From the IMG/VR virus record IMGVR_UViG_3300031841_004526: DNA of 64,000 nucleotides. One strand, given 5' to 3'. Both the position numbers and the translations under genes were made by a program. The notes beneath the pieces were generated by a model, which had not been told where the DNA came from, ran no database searches, and saw only the letters and a program-made list of their open reading frames with translations. Each line of letters opens with the position of its first letter. The first letter of the stretch is position 1. Source of the DNA: an uncultured virus (IMG/VR IMGVR_UViG_3300031841_004526). Taxonomy: Duplodnaviria > Heunggongvirae > Uroviricota > Caudoviricetes. Positions 102 to 61,096 of this stretch are shown here, piece after piece.

Positions 102-308
102 TTATTCCCAATTTTTGTATCGCAACCGCAGCACACCAGAAGCGGCACGGATGCCATTTTCGATAGCTTCACGATCATCCCCCTCAAGGGTGGGGAGATG
201 CTGTTGAGCAACACGAAGCCAAGTCTGAACTGTAAAATTGTTCAGCTTGTGGAATTTTTCTTGCAATTCAAAAACACTGGGAACACGACTCATTTCCAAA
301 ACACTCAT
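102..308 (-). CDS. small early hypothetical protein, paralogue of 919..1104
   Basis: Start moved to the ATG at 308, downstream of the promoter at 337-365; shares W..VA.Q..P.L.G motif with 919..1104. Confidence 0.7.
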   Translation of the reverse strand: MSVLEMSRVPSVFELQEKFHKLNNFTVQTWLRVAQQHLPTLEGDDREAIENGIRAASGVLRLRYKNWE

Positions 309-336
309 TTCTAACTCTCTTTCTTTCATGCTTGCC

Positions 337-365
337 ATTATACCATAATTATCGTCATTTGTCAA
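337..365 (-). promoter_or_regulatory. perfect sigma70 promoter TTGACA-17-TATAAT
   Basis: Exact consensus on the minus strand. Confidence 0.9.
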
Positions 366-438
366 TAGGTTTCTTGAAAAAATTCTCGATTTTTGTGTCA
401 AGAAAATTTGACAAAACTTTTTCATTTTTCGGCACGTT

Positions 439-454
439 TGGCACGAGGTTTGCT
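439..454 (+). promoter_or_regulatory. sigma54 (RpoN) -24/-12 box TGGCACG-AGGT-TTGCT
   Basis: Exact match to TGGCACG-N4-TTGCW; intergenic. Confidence 0.65.
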
Positions 455-529
455 GGCTGTTTGCATAATTTAACCCGAAGGGTTAGCTAGTACAGGGGGG
501 TCAACCCCCCATAGGTGGGGAAAAGCGCT

Positions 530-859
530 TTACTCCCCCTCGAATGGGGAGGTTTCCTCCTCAGATAAGCTAGCATACTGAGCAGCCAACGCAGCCACCC
601 GTTCGGGGGATCCTGGTTTGCCTACTGGGAACCGCATACGATCTTCACCCCCTATAAGGCGGGGATCAGCTTTTGGGCTTTTGATTCGCAATTCCCGCAA
701 GCCTGAGCGTGAAAACTTCAATACCTTTTCACTCTGCACCATACCACCATCGGCGGTAGTCTTTTGGCAAGGAATGGCGATACCCTTCCAGACTGAGGAT
801 ACTTGATTCCAAGCATTGCGAGTGATCGGGAACTGCGACATCATTTTTTCTGTACTCAT
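530..859 (-). CDS. early hypothetical protein with a PGSPERVAAL motif
   Basis: TAGGAGA RBS and its own promoter; 109 aa. Confidence 0.75.
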   Translation of the reverse strand: MSTEKMMSQFPITRNAWNQVSSVWKGIAIPCQKTTADGGMVQSEKVLKFSRSGLRELRIKSPKADPRLIGGEDRMRFPVGKPGSPERVAALAAQYASLSEEETSPFEGE

Positions 860-863
860 TTTT

Positions 864-913
864 TTCTCCTAAGTGTGAAACCAAGTCTACCAAAATCTTT
901 TTGTTTGTGTCAA
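864..913 (-). promoter_or_regulatory. sigma70 promoter TTGACA-18-TAGACT plus leader GTTTCACACTTAGGAGAA
   Basis: 18-nt leader identical to 1111-1128. Confidence 0.8.
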
Positions 914-918
914 CCCCC

Positions 919-1104
919 CTATCGGGTGGCTAGCTCTTTTCTTGCATGAATCAAGGCCCGCATGACGGACAGTTGTTCTTCACCCCTCAGATTAGGGATG
1001 CGTTGTTCGGCAACCTCAATCCATATGTCTAGGACAGTGGTGGCCATATCTGCGAAATATTTAGCGTAGCAGTTAGCGGTAGGGTAAATCTTAACATTTT
1101 GCAT
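919..1104 (-). CDS. small early hypothetical protein, paralogue of 102..308
   Basis: TAGGAGA RBS then ATG at 1104. Confidence 0.7.
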   Translation of the reverse strand: MQNVKIYPTANCYAKYFADMATTVLDIWIEVAEQRIPNLRGEEQLSVMRALIHARKELATR

Positions 1105-1110
1105 TTTCAA

Positions 1111-1160
1111 TTCTCCTAAGTGTGAAACAGATTCTAACAAAACTTTTCCTGCGGTGTCAA
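1111..1160 (-). promoter_or_regulatory. sigma70 promoter TTGACA-18-TAGAAT plus leader GTTTCACACTTAGGAGAA
   Basis: Leader identical to 864-881. Confidence 0.8.
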
Positions 1161-1194
1161 CCCCCCTCGCTAGGGGGCTGGTTTAGATACTACA

Positions 1195-1722
1195 CTATGC
1201 CACGATCACCCCCTCCTCTGAGGGATCCCATAGGATCGTTGGGATTTTGCTGTTCGTCATGTCGCCCCGAAAGTAGATATCGTATCCTTCCGACTTGCGT
1301 TTGGCGTTTGATGCCCACCGTTTGACGTCTCGACTACTAGCAGTCTTAACTACTACCCCATTGGTGGGGTGTACGAAAGCGAAAAACAGAATGTCGAATA
1401 GTTCAGGCTTGACGCCGCAGAAATAATACTTTCCCGACGTTGGGCCGAGTAGACTAGACTTCACTTCACCCCGAACAATCCTACCCCCCACGTAGAGGGA
1501 TATGTCATGAGTATGAGCACAACCCCCCATATGGGCGGAGTCTATGCCGAATCGTTTCATATGATCGACAATCATAAGCTCAACGCTAGTCCCCCTATCG
1601 GTGGGGGACATTTGAGCTAGGTCGAAACTAAGCTCACTCTTTTGGGGGGTATATACTTGGTTGTCGCCTCGCTTGCTGGCAATGGCATTTTTTGCGTTAG
1701 CTAAATCAAGCATTGTAAACAT
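1195..1722 (-). CDS. putative PD-(D/E)XK restriction-endonuclease-like protein
   Basis: GTSVE...HDI...GEVKSS motif order; start reassigned to the ATG at 1722 after a TAGGA RBS and the promoter at 1752-1781. Confidence 0.6.
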   Translation of the reverse strand: MFTMLDLANAKNAIASKRGDNQVYTPQKSELSFDLAQMSPTDRGTSVELMIVDHMKRFGIDSAHMGGCAHTHDISLYVGGRIVRGEVKSSLLGPTSGKYYFCGVKPELFDILFFAFVHPTNGVVVKTASSRDVKRWASNAKRKSEGYDIYFRGDMTNSKIPTILWDPSEEGVIVA

Positions 1723-1751
1723 GGGTTTTTTCCTAGTGGTGATTTTTGTCG

Positions 1752-1781
1752 AGTCTACCATATTGTATCGGCAATCGTCAA
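1752..1781 (-). promoter_or_regulatory. sigma70 promoter TTGACG-18-TAGACT
   Basis: Same architecture as the other early promoters. Confidence 0.65.
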
Positions 1782-1924
1782 GCGGAAATTTCATATTCTT
1801 CCGAAATAACTTCGCAATGCTCACCGCAAGCGGGGCAGCATTGGGCATCGTCACGGCAGTATTCGCCGCAGCAGTCTGAAACGTATGCAATTTCGATTCT
1901 AGTGTATTCTTCGATTCTACTCAT
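1778..1924 (-). CDS. small Cys-rich zinc-ribbon-like protein (48 aa)
   Basis: SDCC...CPACGEHC; GGAG RBS before the ATG at 1924. Confidence 0.65.
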   Translation of the reverse strand: MSRIEEYTRIEIAYVSDCCGEYCRDDAQCCPACGEHCEVISEEYEISA

Positions 1925-1967
1925 TTTCGATTCTCCAAAAGGTTTCGTTTTCAATACTAGTGTATAA

Positions 1968-1983
1968 TGCAATCACCGTGCCA
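1968..1983 (-). promoter_or_regulatory. sigma54 -24/-12 box TGGCACG-GTGA-TTGCA
   Basis: Exact consensus about 45 nt upstream of the ATG at 1924; no sigma70 box seen for this gene. Confidence 0.7.
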
Positions 1984-2376
1984 TTCGGAAAAAAATTTTT
2001 TTGCCTAAAAAATAGGGGTTTTCGTATCGTATCCCCCATTGGTAGGTGAGGCATTTTGCTACAAAGTGTAGCTTTTTGCAATGAATTTTGCAACACACCC
2101 CCTATCGGTAGGGTAAAATTTCAGATTTTGTCTCATAGTTGGACAAATTGTAGTTATATCCCCCATAAGAGGGGAATAGAAGCTATTATCCCCCAAAAGG
2201 GGGGAAAAGCTGTTTAGCTTGTCGCTTGGAAGTATACCCCCCAAAAGTAGGGTAGGATAATCATACCCCCATTAAGAGGGGTGGGTTTTTTTGTTTGCCA
2301 CCATAGAGGGGATCACCCCCCCAAAAGCGGGGGGGCATCTAAACACAATAGGCACCCTCTCAAAAAATTAACCGAT

Positions 2377-2595
2377 TTAATTTATGTTTATGTTATCGGT
2401 ACTCTGTTTCTTTCGTGGCCTGCCCCTACTTTTCTTTACATTCTCTTTTCGTCTCTGTTGGCGCACCATATCAGATGTAACATTCTCACCACTAATTTTG
2501 CTCATTCTAGCAGCAATTTCTCTATCTGTCATAGTTCCCGCATTATCCTTTATAAACCCTCGCTCTGCAGCACTCCACTTCTTATAATTAGCCAT
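2377..2595 (-). CDS. small HTH DNA-binding protein with AT-hook-like RGRPRKK tail
   Basis: WSAAE..IK....MTDREIA pattern; AAGGA RBS; GGTGTAAT on the minus strand at 2647-2654. Confidence 0.75.
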   Translation of the reverse strand: MANYKKWSAAERGFIKDNAGTMTDREIAARMSKISGENVTSDMVRQQRRKENVKKSRGRPRKKQSTDNININ

Positions 2596-2674: not shown

Positions 2675-2821
2675 ATGACTAAATCGGTTGATTCCACACT
2701 TTGCGTTAAAGCCTGTGCCAATGTTGATGTAACTCAGGATCTAGAAAAATGTGAAGGAAAATGCGTCAGAGAATTACTAGATGAGCAAAAAGAAAAAGAA
2801 AACCAAAAAGAATCTAGCTAA
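2675..2821 (+). CDS. 48-aa hypothetical protein (MTKSVDSTLCVKAC...), not in the ORF track
   Basis: AGGAG RBS, ATG at 2675, TAA at 2819-2821. Confidence 0.55.
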   Translation: MTKSVDSTLCVKACANVDVTQDLEKCEGKCVRELLDEQKEKENQKESS

Positions 2822-3416
2822 CGGAGTAACAGAAGAAGAGTTTTTAACCGTTTTAGACAACATAAGCAAACGGCTAGGAAACAAATTCAAATTCGGCTAT
2901 CATACCTTTGAAGATATGAAGCAGCAAGCTGCAATATTTGCCCTAGAAGGACTAGAACGATACGACAATAAAAGACCATTAGAAAACTTCCTATGGACCC
3001 ATGTTCGTAACCGCCTTTTTAATTATAAACGAGACAATTATCAAAGGCCCGATAAACCTTGTTTAACCTGCCCCTTTTATGATAAGCACTTTCAAAAAAG
3101 CGACAGTCAATGCACTGAGTATAAAGACATTAGCGAGTGCTCACTTTACTCATCATGGCTCGAACGAAACTCGGCCAAAAAGAACATAATGAAACCAGTA
3201 GGAATAGACAGCCTTAGTTTTAATTTTGCCAATAAAACAGATGTTGACCAAGAAGTGTCCAACGAACAAATATTTGAAATTATAGAGAGCAACCTGCCCA
3301 CACAATATCGTGAACTTTATCTTAGATATCGCTATGGCGACAAAATCAATAAAAACGACCAAAACAAAATTGTAAATATCATACGTAAAATCCTAGAGGA
3401 AAATAAAGATGGCTAA
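2781..3416 (+). CDS. phage-encoded sigma70-family factor (probable late sigma) with a Cys-rich insert
   Basis: Region-2-like EDMKQQAAIFALEGLERYD..RPLENFLWTHVRNRLFNYKR; CxxC..C..C insert; region-4-like LPTQYRELYLRY. Confidence 0.7.
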   Translation: MSKKKKKTKKNLANGVTEEEFLTVLDNISKRLGNKFKFGYHTFEDMKQQAAIFALEGLERYDNKRPLENFLWTHVRNRLFNYKRDNYQRPDKPCLTCPFYDKHFQKSDSQCTEYKDISECSLYSSWLERNSAKKNIMKPVGIDSLSFNFANKTDVDQEVSNEQIFEIIESNLPTQYRELYLRYRYGDKINKNDQNKIVNIIRKILEENKDG

Positions 3417-4215
3417 AGTCCCCCGTAAACGCGGCCAGCTGTCACTAGACGAAGAACAATATATTAAGGAAAATTTCCAAAAGCTTAGTGTTAAAGATAT
3501 TGCCGCCCACCTAAACCGCACTACTGCACCAATCAGTAGATTTATCGAAGAAACAAAGCTAGATTTTATACAGGACCAAGAAGGCTATGACACCCTACGA
3601 ACCAAATTACACAGTAAGAATTTCTGGGGCGAAATTAAAAAACAATTTGATGAGGAAAGTGGGGAATTAGAATACTTTGAGAACACCTGGATTAATTTAG
3701 TCAAACAATTTAGGGAGGATGTTTTACCCGCCGAGGAACTCCAGATCAAACAATTTATAACCATAGACATTCTTATTAACCGCTCTATGAAAGAACGCAA
3801 ACGCCACATAGCCGATACTGAAAAATTACAAAAACAAGTTGATAAAGAATACTCTAAGAATGAAGACGAACGAGACATACAAAGATTGACCAATTTAGAA
3901 ACCCAATTGAGTTTTGCCCGTAATAGTATTGCCAACTACACAAATGAGTACACTAAGCTGCTGAACGAACAACAAAAGATAAGCAAGGACCTAAAAGCCA
4001 CTCGTGAACAGCGAATCAAGCGAATTGAGGATGGCAAGAGTAGTTGGGTGGGGCTTATACGAATGTTGGAGGATGAAGAACTACGAGAAAAGCAAGGACG
4101 AGAAATGGAAATTTTACGTATGGCAACAAACAAAGCTCAGAGTACACTTACTGAATATCATACTTATGCAGACAATGCGGTAGACAAACCCTTTTTATTA
4201 CCAGAAGATGCGTAA
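3409..4215 (+). CDS. HTH plus coiled-coil protein, possible terminase small subunit
   Basis: N-terminal HTH-like LSVKDIAAHLNRT; lies upstream of terL. Confidence 0.45.
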   Translation: MAKVPRKRGQLSLDEEQYIKENFQKLSVKDIAAHLNRTTAPISRFIEETKLDFIQDQEGYDTLRTKLHSKNFWGEIKKQFDEESGELEYFENTWINLVKQFREDVLPAEELQIKQFITIDILINRSMKERKRHIADTEKLQKQVDKEYSKNEDERDIQRLTNLETQLSFARNSIANYTNEYTKLLNEQQKISKDLKATREQRIKRIEDGKSSWVGLIRMLEDEELREKQGREMEILRMATNKAQSTLTEYHTYADNAVDKPFLLPEDA

Positions 4216-56762: not shown

Positions 56763-58346
56763 CTATGCTTGCCAAACCTTCTTGATGATCATACTATCAT
56801 CCTTCTTCTTCGATGGCTCTAATTTTATTACTGTAGTATTGTCTACAGATAATAAATGTCTGTATATTTTGTATTCTTCAGGAAAGATTACTGTGTCTAT
56901 TGATCCAGTATTATCTGCTATTTTAACAAATGCCATTTCCTGTCCAGGATTTGCACCTCTTTTAGTTTTAATCACACTAACATCTTTAATCTCAATACCT
57001 ACCATTATATTTCTTGGGAAAGTCCTAGCATTACATAAAGCCCTACAATCTGTATTGACGTAATGTAAGTCGCACTCATCTATTTTGGAGCAGGACACGC
57101 TAATACCTAATAATTGATTCTCTGTGTCTGCTATCCATGCGATAGAGTCTTCTAATGAATATGCTGGATTTTTGAGCGACTCCAGTAAAGATTCTATAGA
57201 CTTTTTTCTTCTAACATTAACCTTTGTTAATACGAACGAAATACACTGTAAGATATTTTTAAATTCACCGATATTATTTACAATGTGTTCTTTCTCTTTG
57301 ACTGTTAGATTATCTATGATGTCATAATCAAATAGCATCTGTTTTCTGCTTAATCCAAGATAATCAAAACAACCAACAGATATCATGCCTTTAGCACCAG
57401 TCTTATTGATCTTATCCAAGACCTTGAACATAATCTCTAGATAGTTTGCATTTTGCCTATCTATTTCCAGTGTTTGCATCTTGTCATAAACAGAATCCCC
57501 GACTCCTTTAATATCTGTTAATCCAAAGTAAATCTTATCGTTTTGTAGTATGCAGTCTTTGTTATTGATTCTAAAGTCAGGATTGCACACATCAATATCC
57601 ATCTGCCTACAATTACTTACGAGATCACATATTTCTTGAAAAGGATCAATCTTTTCTCTGGCTAATTGTAGATAAGAAACGAAAAATTGTTTAGGAAAAT
57701 GGGTTTTGACATAAGCCGATAGATATGCATTCATAGCATAGGAAATAGCGTGGCTTTTATTAAAAGAATATCTCTGGCTTTTTTCAATCCAGTTGAAGAT
57801 TTCTGTGGACTGCTCAACATTCACCACATTGATCTTCTTGCAGCCTGCCAGGAACTTCTTTTTAATTTTGGCCATCTCTTCTGGTTTCTTTTTACCAATG
57901 GCCTTACGAAGCATGTCAGCGTCTTGTAGGTCAAATCCGGCGATGCCTTGGGCAATTTGCATAGCCTGTTCTTGATAGATCATCTCACCATATGTAGTGG
58001 AAAGAATATCTTTTAGACTCTCATGATAATAATCAATTGATTCTAATCCATTTTTCTTATCTATATAATGATTACTAACAGACTTGCCATCACGATATGC
58101 CTCTAAGCAACCGGGACGTAAAATAGAGATCAAAGCCGATAGTTGCTCTATATTTTCTGGCTTGAGTTTTTTAGCCATTGTTTGGCCTAGTCGAGACTCT
58201 AACTGGAAACACCCCTTAGTATTGCCAGAGCCAATTAATTTCCAAGTTTGTTTACAATCGAGATTGAGATTGATCAAATTAAGATCAAGATCTATTTTGT
58301 CTTCGGTAAAGCCAAATGAGCAACCGCACTTATATTTTTTACGCAT
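56763..58346 (-). CDS. dnaE: DNA polymerase III alpha, C-terminal half (fingers, HhH, OB)
   Basis: GCFQLES, RPG, YQEQ, AD.LRKAIGKK, YSFNKSHA, GL.DIKGVG. Confidence 0.9.
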   Translation of the reverse strand: MRKKYKCGCSFGFTEDKIDLDLNLINLNLDCKQTWKLIGSGNTKGCFQLESRLGQTMAKKLKPENIEQLSALISILRPGCLEAYRDGKSVSNHYIDKKNGLESIDYYHESLKDILSTTYGEMIYQEQAMQIAQGIAGFDLQDADMLRKAIGKKKPEEMAKIKKKFLAGCKKINVVNVEQSTEIFNWIEKSQRYSFNKSHAISYAMNAYLSAYVKTHFPKQFFVSYLQLAREKIDPFQEICDLVSNCRQMDIDVCNPDFRINNKDCILQNDKIYFGLTDIKGVGDSVYDKMQTLEIDRQNANYLEIMFKVLDKINKTGAKGMISVGCFDYLGLSRKQMLFDYDIIDNLTVKEKEHIVNNIGEFKNILQCISFVLTKVNVRRKKSIESLLESLKNPAYSLEDSIAWIADTENQLLGISVSCSKIDECDLHYVNTDCRALCNARTFPRNIMVGIEIKDVSVIKTKRGANPGQEMAFVKIADNTGSIDTVIFPEEYKIYRHLLSVDNTTVIKLEPSKKKDDSMIIKKVWQA

Positions 58347-59058
58347 GAGCAAAAGAGTTTTTGAACTGTATCCTGTTAGCAAAATTCTTGTGTAACTTGA
58401 GAAACCTTATCAATATGTTAGCACAGTCAGTGACATCCTTCAAGGCGTCGTGTGCATTATCAGAGTCTATTCCCATATACGATCTAATCGAATCTAACGA
58501 TATGGACTTAATTTCTGGTATGTACATAAACCATAAGTTTACAACGTACATTAGATCTATTCTATCTCTAGGATGAAATATAGATGTGGACTTTTCTTTA
58601 GCGTCAAACTGATCGTATTTTTCGCTAAGTCTATCTACAATCTTCATATCAAATCTATTGATATTATAGCCACATGCAATAGGTGCTGTGAACTTACTTT
58701 TGGTTTTCTTGCCAGATCCACCTAAATGGTAATTATCTAGGTAGCTAATAAATTGTTGCCAAGAATGTTTTTGTTCTGGATATTTCAACCAATCTTCCAG
58801 AATCGTACTTTTATCGACACCTCTCACTTTGCCGTGCCAATCTAAAATATCGGAATCGGTATATGGATGATTATCAATAGTTACGCCTTCGGCTTTTTCT
58901 AGCCGTTCTGGTTTAAGATTGATATTAAATTCCGAGTTTTCTACAATCTTTAATTTAACCGGGTCCACTATGACTGCTGCGAGTTGCACGGGGCTGCAAT
59001 TGTGTGGATCAGCCCCGTCCGTCTCAAAGTCAAAGACACAAATCTTATTCTTGTTCAT
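58339..59058 (-). CDS. DEDDh 3'-5' exonuclease (DnaQ-like)
   Basis: FDFETDG, GYNI..FD, AHDALKD. Confidence 0.88.
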   Translation of the reverse strand: MNKNKICVFDFETDGADPHNCSPVQLAAVIVDPVKLKIVENSEFNINLKPERLEKAEGVTIDNHPYTDSDILDWHGKVRGVDKSTILEDWLKYPEQKHSWQQFISYLDNYHLGGSGKKTKSKFTAPIACGYNINRFDMKIVDRLSEKYDQFDAKEKSTSIFHPRDRIDLMYVVNLWFMYIPEIKSISLDSIRSYMGIDSDNAHDALKDVTDCANILIRFLKLHKNFANRIQFKNSFAHA

Positions 59059-59228
59059 GCAACCTTTTGTACTTCCTGTTGTGGTTTGAAAACTGCATTT
59101 GCTCCATTAGCTACCTGTTTAGCATTACATTTAAGCTGGCAACAAGTAAGCTTTTCTGGTTTGACTTTTTTATACTTGACATTATTAACTGTGAAAATAT
59201 CACCAAGTTTTAAATCTTGAAATTTCAT
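59055..59228 (-). CDS. 57-aa hypothetical protein (MKFQDLKLGDIF...TCC..CNA), not in the ORF track
   Basis: AGGAG RBS, ATG at 59228, ATGA overlap with the exonuclease start. Confidence 0.65.
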   Translation of the reverse strand: MKFQDLKLGDIFTVNNVKYKKVKPEKLTCCQLKCNAKQVANGANAVFKPQQEVQKVA

Positions 59229-59233
59229 AGTAT

Positions 59234-61096
59234 TTACTCCTTTTTTAGTAACGATTGGACATTCATCATTTTATCCAGCAGGGCAATACCTAGGATATCG
59301 AATTTTACTACACCTATAGATTCTAAATCATTCATTTCTAAACCGGCTATGTTTTGTTTGGTTTTAGTATCATAAATCATAGGGCAGATACCAGCTAGGC
59401 TTTCCTGGGATATTGCGATACCTGCTGCATGTTTAGATTGGTTGTACTTGGTGCCTTCTAATCTAATAGCTTGCTCAAAGCGTTTGGCAAGTGGTCCCTT
59501 GAGTTCGCCGTCTTGCTTATGACACCAATCTTGCAATTGTTTGCTATTGTTTTCTAATGCCCAGTTGATAATCGAGGCTTCTCCGCTTTCGTCTTTCATT
59601 TCTTGCAGTTCATCTGCAATTTTTGCCTCATCTGGTATATGTTTGGTAATACGGTTCATTTCTTCAAAAGATATATTGCCATATACTCTTAGTACCTCTT
59701 TCAATGCTCCTCTGCCTTTAAGCGTATTATAGGTAATCATTTGAGAAACTTTATCTTGACCATATGTATTTTTGATATACTGAATAATTTCTTCTCGTTT
59801 ATTAATCGGCACATCAACGTCAATATCTGGCATGGATATTCTATCTTTACTGTTACGGCCAGCGTTGTAAAATCTTTCAAAAATCAGATTGTATTTGATG
59901 GGATCAATAGCTGTAATACCCACCAAATATGACACTAGGCATCCAGCGGCACTGCCTCTACCGGGTCCAGGTAGCCAATGATTTTTCTGCACATGATTGA
60001 CTATATCTTGCACAATCAAAAAATAACTACTAAGATTGGCACCTTCCAGCACATCTAGTTCATATTTAATGCGATCAACATATTTGTTATGCAATTCTTT
60101 CGGCACAACATTTTGAATTCTGTCTCGCCAGCCATGACGGCAAAGCTCTCTTAAGTATTGCTCAGAGTTCATTCCGTCAGGACAATTAAAGTCTGGAAGA
60201 TGAGGCTTGTTAAGAATATCATAATCTTCACACATAGAATCCACCAAGTTGGTATTATCTATTTCATCCCCAAGATTAATCTCGTTGATATCTTCATGAG
60301 ATAGTATATGATAGCTATCAGAGTGGAAAAATGAATCCATTCCGAATGATTCACCCCTAGATATTTTTTCTGCAACTTTTGGCAGAGACAGCTTCATATT
60401 ACTGCATAGCAAGATTCTTTGATCTACGCAATCATCAGCTTCACAGTAATGAGCATCTATGCTGGCTATTTTAGGAATTTTATTGAGAGTGCATATATCT
60501 CTCAGTTTTTGTCCTATGGTTTGCTGGTATTGATTTTCTCGATCCATTAGTTGTACTTCAACGAAAAAATTGTCTTTTCCAAAGATATCTGACAGACCAC
60601 CTATTTCCTTGAGTATTTCGTTATCGCTAACAAAACTTTCTTCAGGATATATTTTGTTTGCTAAATATGAACCAGGATGTCCACACAAACACACAATATC
60701 ATTCTTGGATACCATCGATCCTAACTTGGCCATATCCAAACGAGGTTTGTGGTAAAAGTTTTCTGCTTTGTTAGACTCTGAAACAATTTGCACAAGATTT
60801 TTCCAACCGTTCAGATTTTTCGACAATAAAACTATATGTGATAATTTTCTATTGTCTTTATTGTGAATATGACTGTCTTGTTCAGAAATATATAGCTCAA
60901 CACCAAGAATAGGTTTGATATTTTGCTTACGCATAGTCTGATAAAATTTGATACAGCCAGAAATTGTGCCGTGATCAGTGATAGCACAACTTTTCATTTC
61001 TAGCTTAGAGCATCGTTGGGCGATGTCTTCTGGCTTGCTAAGTCCGTCCAATAAACTGTAATGCGAATGCAAATGCAAAGGGGTATAGGGTTTCAT
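59234..61096 (-). CDS. dnaE: DNA polymerase III alpha, N-terminal half (PHP, palm)
   Basis: HLHSHYSLLDG, TDHG, GRGSAAGCLV, MPDIDVD, HAAG, KFDILG. Confidence 0.92.
   Translation of the reverse strand: MKPYTPLHLHSHYSLLDGLSKPEDIAQRCSKLEMKSCAITDHGTISGCIKFYQTMRKQNIKPILGVELYISEQDSHIHNKDNRKLSHIVLLSKNLNGWKNLVQIVSESNKAENFYHKPRLDMAKLGSMVSKNDIVCLCGHPGSYLANKIYPEESFVSDNEILKEIGGLSDIFGKDNFFVEVQLMDRENQYQQTIGQKLRDICTLNKIPKIASIDAHYCEADDCVDQRILLCSNMKLSLPKVAEKISRGESFGMDSFFHSDSYHILSHEDINEINLGDEIDNTNLVDSMCEDYDILNKPHLPDFNCPDGMNSEQYLRELCRHGWRDRIQNVVPKELHNKYVDRIKYELDVLEGANLSSYFLIVQDIVNHVQKNHWLPGPGRGSAAGCLVSYLVGITAIDPIKYNLIFERFYNAGRNSKDRISMPDIDVDVPINKREEIIQYIKNTYGQDKVSQMITYNTLKGRGALKEVLRVYGNISFEEMNRITKHIPDEAKIADELQEMKDESGEASIINWALENNSKQLQDWCHKQDGELKGPLAKRFEQAIRLEGTKYNQSKHAAGIAISQESLAGICPMIYDTKTKQNIAGLEMNDLESIGVVKFDILGIALLDKMMNVQSLLKKE

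Follow-up and report, generated by a model that had tools for sequence, protein, structure and literature searches.

For the Mor and C activators of phage Mu, the site is a dyad of 16 bp that spans about -36 to -51. KorB of plasmid RK2 has a 16-bp operator, OB, which lies either close ahead of the promoters it targets, at 4-10 bp, or at a distance of 45 to >1000 bp from them, and KorB operators are described as serving domain-wide silencing (PMC11790492). The PeSL cassettes reported from T4-like phages combine hypervariable small genes with near-consensus sigma70 promoters and an upstream inverted repeat made of G/C tracts (PMC2839356; PMC4122927). T5- and SPO1-like long terminal repeats are described as doubled end regions with small early genes and strong host promoters (PMC12282133), and in the case of T5 it has been hypothesised that repeated protein-binding boxes of the repeat act at entry (bioRxiv 10.1101/866236). 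The iterons of the lambda O protein, in turn, are bound by dimers (PMC7466680).

The window analysed here, a 64-kb stretch of DNA from an uncultured virus, contains 26 registers of the strict pattern CCC-N8-GGG, which merge into 16 sites, all at positions 181-2333, with none in 2400-64000. A profile trained on relatives of the window phage, on which all comparisons beyond the window rest, detects 23 sites when the threshold is set to >=8 bits and 22 when it is >=11 (scores 8-23 bits), compared with 1.1 and 0.3 sites in shuffled sequence. All of them fall within the domain 180..2332 (no strand), and none lies outside it across the whole 64 kb. The 16-bp cores start at 180, 505, 536, 595, 649, 914, 983, 1161, 1210, 1354, 1485, 1523, 1591, 1634, 1822 (weak), 2032, 2098, 2159, 2189, 2237, 2266, 2296 and 2317. 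When placed on the ORF list of the window, 12 of the 23 sites are inside ORFs, among them a 68-aa early ORF (102..308, minus strand; dyad 180-195), a 61-aa early ORF (919..1104, minus; dyad 983-998) and a gene for a predicted 175-aa restriction-nuclease-like protein (1195..1722, minus; an Atlas lead), which carries six dyads in its coding sequence. A further eight, several of them paired ~28-30 bp apart, form a non-coding cluster (2032..2332, no strand). An earlier note on this DNA had counted about 20 palindromes restricted to the early arm, 16 of them strict, with about half in ORFs, eight in a non-coding stretch near 2034-2332 and no similar cluster in the rest of the window; all of these observations were reproduced.

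The pattern CCCYH-N4-DRGGG given in that note proved inexact, as it is broken by the sites at 181, 650 and 2319. Motif building by EM from 195 segments of relatives yielded a better description, a 16-bp dyad CCCC-N-C-N4-G-N-GGGG with an A/T-rich centre. The spacing control of that note, N8 against N7 and N9, fails when run naively on the window (counts of 21/26/26 for N7/N8/N9), since the runs of C and of G extend over 3-7 bases. All 16 strict sites can be fitted with an N8 spacer, and with no other. Among 87 arms, the inner gaps between C-run and G-run number 144, 124 and 139 at gaps 6-8 and drop to 41 at gap 9, whereas the reversed order (G-run, then C-run) yields 24-47 throughout gaps 4-10. 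Adjacent sites show a spacing peak at 25-30 bp. Outside the arm, the deficit of sites (26 observed vs 36 expected in 1.43 Mb) is not N8-specific, and a search for another dyad substituting in site-free phages found none.

This fixed geometry supports the earlier reading of the dyad as a protein site with a spacer of fixed length. It also bears on the possibility, in our view highly unlikely, that the sites are RNA or single-strand hairpins, which in early transcripts might serve for processing or for attenuation of the PeSL type. With flanks of 3 nt included, the calculated hairpins average -9.1 kcal/mol and 67% of them fall below -8, pairing would likewise couple both halves, a mild excess of complementarity is seen at a few positions (48 vs 36 and 35 vs 27, of 101), and PeSL stem-loops are described as often having G and C tracts (PMC2839356). 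However, the enrichment concerns the C-then-G order only, with the gap capped at 8, the complementarity excess is register-dependent, and pairing at positions 6/9 is in deficit (11 vs 27.5). Moreover, at least five T follow the G-run on the transcribed strand in only 12 of 241 intergenic sites, and 143 of 408 sites are located within genes. PeSL stem-loops are intergenic terminators, often with polyG before polyC, while the dyads of this phage family run from C to G at fixed spacing, have no U-tract and lie in genes in 35% of cases.

The dyad array is common to a widespread family of large aquatic phages. Conservation in related phages, one of the checks set by the earlier note, is family-wide, as seen around a conserved boundary element of ~85 bp (2280..2362, plus strand, in the window), of which 88 distinct copies were compared. 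The element consists of a G-run, a T-tract, ~30 bp and a second G-rich block. Dyad density is ~2/kb on the arm side of this element, falls to ~0.2/kb at 6 kb and is ~0 on the other side, so that the sites are confined to about 5-6 kb from the conserved edge. In site-rich phages, both G-runs of the element are completed to dyads and density is highest there; the element is kept in site-free relatives too. Strict sites are missing from the first 3.5 kb in eight of 58 relatives, and site gain and loss are patchy on trees.

The boundary element is probably the edge of a long terminal repeat. Per-contig depth over the arm is ~2x in 3/3 contig sets from three studies, a value to which shared arms of related phages could contribute; the raw-read run comprised 11 reads, and the far repeat edge falls beyond the window. 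In addition, eight of 19 contigs terminate <=254 bp core-side of the element, three of them within 40 bp, a pattern that breakage at a conserved element could mimic. Taken together, the doubled depth and the contig ends suggest that the arm edge is the end of a terminal repeat, and the genome terminus proposed in the earlier note is now a probable one. For long terminal repeats of the T5 and SPO1 type, the word-matching literature searches listed no comparable scattered dyad, and the repeat in the present family is deduced from depth.

The arms are built of recombining promoter-gene cassettes, in which each of the small variable genes is preceded, as in PeSL cassettes, by a near-consensus sigma70 promoter. 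Two such promoters of the window abut dyads at their -35 boxes: that at 1160-1131, next to the dyad 1161-1176 (together 1131..1176, minus strand), drives ORF 919-1104, and that at 913-884, next to the variant dyad 914-929 (884..929, minus), drives ORF 530-859. When dyad registers were placed relative to 1380 promoter matches, 102 of them ended 0-2 bp ahead of the -35 box and three at -3, with zero at -4 to -9 and zero from +1 to +86, giving the dyad a seat at about -36 to -52 on one promoter class. Dyads abut 24 of the 302 promoters located <=4 kb from the edge, most arm promoters being without one, unlike the PeSL arrangement. Of these 24, only one carries the CGAT promoter motif, as opposed to 155 of the 278 others (p 3e-7, uncorrected for kinship), and none has the upstream A/T tract found in 165 of the 278, an absence that arises partly by construction because the dyad occupies that very window. 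Up to 4 kb from the edge, 25 of 326 promoters are abutted by a dyad, compared with one of 180 at 4-6 kb and none of 244 further away; even among promoters with an abutting GGG, a dyad is present in 16 of 34 within 6 kb and in 0 of 10 further away. Since the promoter-dense early region spans 20-30 kb while the sites stop at ~6 kb, a plain promoter regulon is insufficient as an explanation. Sorted by position, the 408 distinct sites fall into 24 directly against a full promoter match, a further 241 in intergenic DNA and 143 in coding DNA.

Palindromic sites both beside the -35 box and far from promoters resemble the layout of KorB operators, but their sequence is different, they are limited to one end region and they are quickly gained and lost; ParB_N, the domain of ParB-family CTPases, was found in 0 of 5 complete relatives. 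A 16-bp dyad at a similar position is shared with Mu Mor/C, except that the promoters of this family are already near consensus, and none of the five complete relatives has a match to the Mor family. It is also conceivable, albeit unlikely, that a host or co-injected protein uses the sites to handle the first-entering DNA as an anchor, a ratchet, a block to resection or a means of repeat pairing. Such a role, which parallels the unproven DnaA-box proposal for the T5 terminal repeat, fits a gradient that starts from the probable end and is blind to coding status, and a host-dependent factor would suit sites that come and go patchily on the trees while no phage gene follows them. It does not predict, however, the exact -35 seat or the exclusion from CGAT promoters.

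Selection on the dyad could be followed inside o530 (530..859, minus strand), a gene for a 109-aa early protein of no known family or fold, the dyad of which (649-664) falls in D-P-R-x-x-G-G codons and was chosen for a coupled-codon test. Among 104 homologs, 57 have both halves of the dyad, 41 neither, five the left half only and one the right half only. By parsimony, the halves require 16 + 17 steps separately and 20 jointly, a saving of 13 steps, compared with only 3-6 for six control synonymous sites of the same gene. These codon patterns show that both halves are selected together as synonymous codons, even in coding DNA. An end-handling signal that is polar in the simple manner of Chi could do without one of the halves, yet they are coupled. 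The same result, together with the control sites, largely refutes the extremely improbable notion that the dyads arose neutrally, as a by-product when cassettes were duplicated and homopolymers slipped in an arm that is hypervariable. Recombining cassettes and strain-variable run lengths (indels at 495 and 2199) are what such a process would leave behind; unrelated flanks, fixed spacing and the end gradient are not.

As to the protein that would bind the dyads, two HTH proteins are encoded next to the array. The first is a 72-aa protein with a three-helix HTH and an AT-hook (2377..2595, minus strand), the top phage-encoded candidate. It has an invariant M-x-R-x-Q-R-R helix, is modelled as an HTH (pLDDT 87) and, in a comparison with PHROGs, hits D5-like regulators at E 1.7e-5. 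Its predicted fold is closest to the DNA-binding domain of GcrA (Z 7.1, rmsd 1.9, 48 aligned), followed by the small-terminase HTH of G20c TerS (Z 6.7, rmsd 0.8, 46 aligned), although unrelated models also reach Z ~7 at this 48-residue HTH size. Beyond a sigma-factor-like gene that starts the late module (2781..3416, plus strand), the second candidate binder, a 268-aa protein with an HTH and a coiled coil (3409..4215, plus), is probably the small terminase; its gene precedes those for HNH and ERCC4 proteins and for the large terminase subunit. The closest terminases of isolated phages, those of Bacillus phages Stahl, Staley and Slash, are only 25% identical.

The probable small terminase, with or without the 72-aa protein, might wrap the array by the cut site and set the repeat boundary, a packaging role that we consider highly unlikely. 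The peak of site density at the boundary element, with both its G-runs completed to dyads in site-rich phages, and the TerS-like fold speak for it; the boundary element and the HTH are nevertheless conserved where sites are absent, the 268-aa gene being present in all eight relatives without a strict site in the first 3.5 kb, and the sites extend 5 kb inward and adjoin -35 boxes. Both HTH proteins are essentially alike in site-free and site-rich relatives, so neither explains site gain and loss; when residues of the 72-aa protein were tested for a relation to site density, none was conspicuous (best p 0.01, 114 tests). Likewise, no arm gene family explains density, and no regulator-like gene restricted to site-rich genomes was found among 230 clusters of 10 genomes, several of them partial (105 representatives scanned). 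The arm nuclease was rejected as a partner, its association with density being absent (p 0.04, 32 loci; p 0.14, 42 loci). The o530 protein was attractive at first, with a site in its own gene and an internal cut to 53 aa in the site-free L008, but it is intact in the site-free L236, L246, L257, L282, L311 and L360 and was dismissed as a site-tracking binder; its structure was modelled poorly (pTM 0.31), and neither a fold comparison nor the PDB gave a match.

The earlier note knew of no described system with this motif; the iterons of lambda-O-type initiators, however, have a motif of like shape. In both, a 16-18-bp dyad consists of a C-run, an A/T-rich centre and a G-run, tandem spacing is 23-30 bp and sites occur within coding DNA. 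The profile, made from the phage family only, scores the four annotated lambda iterons (ITN1-4 of ori-lambda) at 11.5-16.4 bits, with nothing else >5 in that 1.1 kb, as high as most window sites, and most sites of temperate-phage arrays reach 9-20 bits, although any C-run/G-run dyad would score on such a profile. A tandem-dyad scan returned 101 loci, 20 of them from the family; at the unrelated ones, 15 of 20 scanned ORFs (20 taken by length from 46) have Phage_rep_O or HTH_36. The sites might be iteron look-alikes for a winged-helix initiator of the lambda-O/HTH_36 type, either an undetected phage protein or one borrowed from a prophage, plasmid or host, and would start replication at the repeat or titrate the initiator of a competitor. 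Such a role has a limited chance of being correct. One relative has three identical sites with a 29-bp period adjoining the edge, and GC skew flips at the edge, but it tracks gene direction. Phage_rep_O (PF04492) is found in 0 of 5 complete relatives (six genomes overall with the HTH_36 test), HTH_36 (PF13730) has no real match in five, the one hit being sub-threshold and containing a stop, and profiles made from the initiators of tandem-dyad loci match 0 of 7582 family ORFs. The four iterons of lambda form one cluster halfway along the gene of the initiator itself, in a common register of N9, 1 bp apart from the N8 of the phage family, in which up to ~25 sites are strewn over 3-6 kb of the end region, some abutting -35 boxes, and are missing from some relatives. 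A compact array in an initiator gene beside an AT-rich unwinding element was not found, the densest cluster being non-coding. The bolder version, in which a lytic jumbo-phage family without its own O-type initiator coats its repeat end with iteron mimics, each of them selected individually and in coding DNA too, to capture the winged-helix initiator of another element, is decidedly unlikely; the captured initiator would launch replication from the entering end or disarm a resident competitor, and patchy gain and loss would track the residents of the host.

The explanation that we tentatively prefer, at somewhat short of an even chance, is that the dyads form an operator array of a dimeric regulator of end-proximal early genes. 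It is based on the fixed geometry and orientation, the coupled halves, the ~5-kb confinement and the fixed -35 seat. The dyad would be a double-stranded DNA site for a dimeric protein that reads G-runs, and the arm a long terminal repeat, the edge of which would enter the cell first. The protein would sit beside the -35 box as well as on auxiliary paired and in-gene sites, in a KorB-like proximal/distal layout, and the strongest, earliest promoters would most likely be damped once their job is done, repression being slightly favoured over activation. Fresh sites would emerge wherever a G-run is already present near the end, so that occupancy of the whole domain would outweigh single positions. 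Under the operator model, the 72-aa protein, with its Arg-rich helix for the G-runs and its AT-hook for the A/T centre, is the best phage-encoded candidate, though at less than an even chance, the remaining probability being shared by the 268-aa protein, o530 and a host factor. Against the model count the mere 24 of 408 sites that abut a full promoter match and the fact that no binder candidate tracks site presence.

With regard to the host, DUF1501 occurs in two of four complete relatives, with the best plasmid match in Singulisphaera (35%), which may point to a Planctomycetota host. MAG matches were discarded as a clue, since the phyla concerned are unrelated ones and the matches seem to be phage contigs that were mis-binned. 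A word-matching literature search, which covered few subscription papers, found no description of the dyad motif in this phage family. Beyond the earlier note, the present analysis adds the end gradient from a separate boundary element, the coupled codon change, the fixed -35 position and the likeness to lambda O iterons. How first-entering DNA is controlled, protected and later shut off in long-repeat phages is poorly understood beyond T5 and SPO1. In the dyad system, selection can be measured on a defined signal of 16 bp, the edge element is conserved, the candidate proteins are short and some relatives naturally lack the sites. The binder should therefore be findable by simple assays in vitro, uncultured though the host is. 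If the binder turned out to be a foreign O-type initiator, the array would represent DNA-level mimicry between mobile elements.

The 16-bp dyad CCCC-N-C-N4-G-N-GGGG, the strict form of which is CCC-N8-GGG, is a real and selected element found family-wide. Pattern counting revealed 26 CCC-N8-GGG registers, corresponding to 16 sites, at 181-2333 of the window and none in the remaining 61.6 kb, in agreement with the earlier note, which had confined the cluster to the first ~2.3 kb. In the near-identical arm (the early region of leftward genes, 180-2332 in the window) of the relative L001, 30 registers were counted versus 2.1 expected from that arm's own CCC and GGG counts. The proposed comparison with N7 and N9 spacers gave a divided answer: raw counts of these registers are likewise high in the window arm (21 and 26), because the C- and G-runs are long, but N8 is the sole spacer accommodating all 16 strict sites. 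The expected conservation in related phages was borne out, as EM recovered the palindromic consensus from 195 segments of 18 relatives; its profile detected 23 sites in the window (threshold ≥8 bits), every one within 180-2332. Across 87 arms, gaps separating a C-run from the G-run that follows it are most frequent at 6-8, and their count falls from 139 to 41 at gap 9; for the G-run-then-C-run order the gap distribution is flat.

The window represents the left portion of a large genome from a tailed phage, with genes for terminase, portal, tape measure protein, split DnaE, SSB and primase; complete relatives comprise about 150-244 kb. The DnaE polymerase (56766-61096, -) is encoded by two genes with an exonuclease gene in between. 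One complete relative, G005 (L380-L383), harbours DUF1501, an actin-like Volactin match, RecA, RuvB and IMP dehydrogenase, along with a SpoU methylase, a SET domain and a large sugar-modification block. DUF1501 was found in two relative genomes, which we take as a hint at a Planctomycetota host.

The arm consists of a series of small leftward genes, each behind near-consensus sigma70 promoters. A conserved boundary element of ~85 bp (2280-2362), itself a candidate signal for terminase recognition or cutting, persists in 146 loci (88 distinct) with or without dyads, site-free phages among them. Site density declines with distance from this element, from 1.95/kb in the first 500 bp to 1.7 (2 kb), 0.95 (3.5 kb) and 0.2 (6 kb), and on the core side, that of the late module, 4 sites lie from 0.5 to 8.5 kb. 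In 80 partly redundant loci retrieved via the 268-aa HTH and coiled-coil protein (3409-4215, +), 233 merged sites map to 457 kb upstream versus 3 to 780 kb downstream; beyond the arms, the frequency of the motif is close to background (26 observed vs 36 expected in 1.43 Mb). Since the promoter-rich region extends 20-30 kb, beyond the range of the sites, these mark the arm end, not promoters as such. Density is continuous among relatives (0 to 22 per 3.5 kb), with no sites in 8/58.

Among 1380 promoter matches, the end of the dyad register falls 0-2 bp upstream of the -35 in 102 instances and at -3 in three, and never at -4 to -9 or +1 to +86. Judging by sequence, the dyad-abutting promoters (884-913 and 1131-1160 in the window, with the dyad adjoining the -35) are a separate class; they make up 25/326 in the first 4 kb, 1/180 at 4-6 kb and 0/244 farther. 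A short CGAT-containing motif, located in the spacer or just past the -10 of more than half of the arm promoters, was found in 1/24 dyad-abutting promoters versus 155/278 others; it is carried by the window promoters 53-81, 337-365 and 1752-1781 and, in relatives, by most of those in the arms. It may mark where a second regulator binds, and it almost never co-occurs with the dyad. Only 24/408 sites adjoin a full promoter; the non-promoter sites are genic or intergenic and frequently paired 25-30 bp apart. Among the matches listed, many unrelated phage records (L085-L205) carry a C-run/G-run dyad immediately 5' of TTGACA with a plausible -10. Other palindromes of arm cassettes are of the TGCC-N5-GGCA and TAAG-N2-CTTA types (upstream arms of L013, L016 and L018; L040, L041, L068 and others).

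The site at 649-664 coincides with the D-P-R-x-x-G-G codons of ORF 530-859 (-), the commonest arm gene, encoding the 109-aa o530. Its terminal acidic tail, with an invariant S-P-F, is retained in the internally shortened o530 of L008 and is reminiscent of the SSB C-terminal tail. In 104 distinct o530 genes, both dyad halves are present in 57, neither in 41 and a single one in 6. When mapped onto a 100-protein tree, the halves require 16 and 17 parsimony steps separately and 20 jointly, saving 13 steps versus 3-6 for six control synonymous positions of the same gene. The left half also showed an association with one control position (p 0.0003), so raw p-values are inflated by kinship. Given the joint presence or absence, the 20 joint steps and the weaker controls, the halves are kept as one unit. 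That the dyads are a neutral by-product is scarcely credible. A hairpin is improbable as well: the dyad would fold at near -9 kcal/mol on either strand, with a slight pairing excess at some positions, but pairing is in deficit at 6/9, a U-tract lies 3' of 12/241 intergenic sites, and 143/408 sites lie within genes. This mixed, weak hairpin evidence, together with the single orientation and the capped gap, favours a dyad that would be read as dsDNA by a two-fold symmetric protein.

Per-contig depth in the arm exceeds that in the late module in three contig sets from three studies (101-171 vs 58-71; 27-39 vs 13-19; 6-10 vs 3-5; the raw-read run comprises 11 reads only), although summed depth does not equal copy number and the stretch 1976-2149, common to related phages as loose ends, counts against depth as repeat evidence. 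Contigs ending core-side of the boundary element do so within 254 bp in 8/19 cases, three within 40 bp, bearing in mind that assemblies can break at conserved elements. As the depth excess and the clustered ends both fit it, a long direct terminal repeat is likely, its end lying near 2362 and its early genes directed inward. The closest isolated terminases are 25% identical; for one of their phages, Staley, a 567-bp repeat is presumed in a passage of PMC3853053. A role of the dyads in end handling of phage DNA seems rather unlikely, and one as a packaging landmark has still less to recommend it. In T5, a DnaA-box role at entry is hypothesized in part of bioRxiv 10.1101/866236.

The earlier note had named the HTH/AT-hook protein of 72 aa (2377-2595, -), the 268-aa protein or a host nucleoid protein as candidate binders. 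The 72-aa protein has a three-helix HTH and an AT-hook, with an M-x-R-x-Q-R-R helix invariant in 69 homologs; its fold is nearest to the GcrA DNA-binding domain (Z 7.1), followed by the G20c TerS HTH (Z 6.7), values within reach of unrelated small domains. G-runs are typically contacted by arginines, and the minor groove of A/T-rich DNA by AT-hooks. The helices of the 72-aa and 268-aa proteins show no difference between site-rich and site-free phages, and site variation is therefore unexplained by either. Both remain candidates because the boundary-element G-runs also occur in site-free phages. No partner that fits throughout emerged from o530, the arm nuclease or genome-wide gene content. The patchily distributed, restriction-nuclease-like early protein of ORF 1195-1722 (-) had one named Atlas match, a Bsp6I-family cluster at 0.92, the remaining clusters being unnamed, and may be a host-DNA nuclease.

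The earlier note knew of no described system with this motif. The family profile, however, scores 11.5-16.4 bits on the four annotated iterons of lambda, whose O protein binds iteron-type inverted repeats as a dimer (passages of PMC7466680 and PMC3349717). A tandem-dyad scan yielded at least 101 loci, at least 20 of them from this phage family; among the matches listed, the array lies in an ORF at 46/61 unrelated flanked loci, and Phage_rep_O or HTH_36 occurs in 15/20 array ORFs chosen by length from the 46. An unrelated 118-kb phage record (L471-L473) has same-shape repeated dyads around a GC-rich palindrome, with 16 N8 sites within one 6-kb locus. The dyad shape is thus already known, but membership tests place the arrangement outside iteron origins, and Phage_rep_O and HTH_36, like ParB and Mor, are each absent from five complete relatives. 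An iteron mimic or origin is a doubtful explanation, and quite unlikely is the variant in which iteron mimics at the repeat end would capture another element's winged-helix initiator.

The layout resembles that of KorB operators, some of which lie against the -35 and others at a distance (part of PMC11790492), although the five complete relatives lack the ParB of that system. The arm is similar to PeSL regions as portrayed in parts of PMC2839356 and PMC4122927, but the dyad does not look like a terminator. A literature word search returned no report of the motif in this phage family. The best reading, to be held tentatively and at somewhat less than even chances, is that the dyads would constitute an end-proximal operator array regulating the earliest genes.
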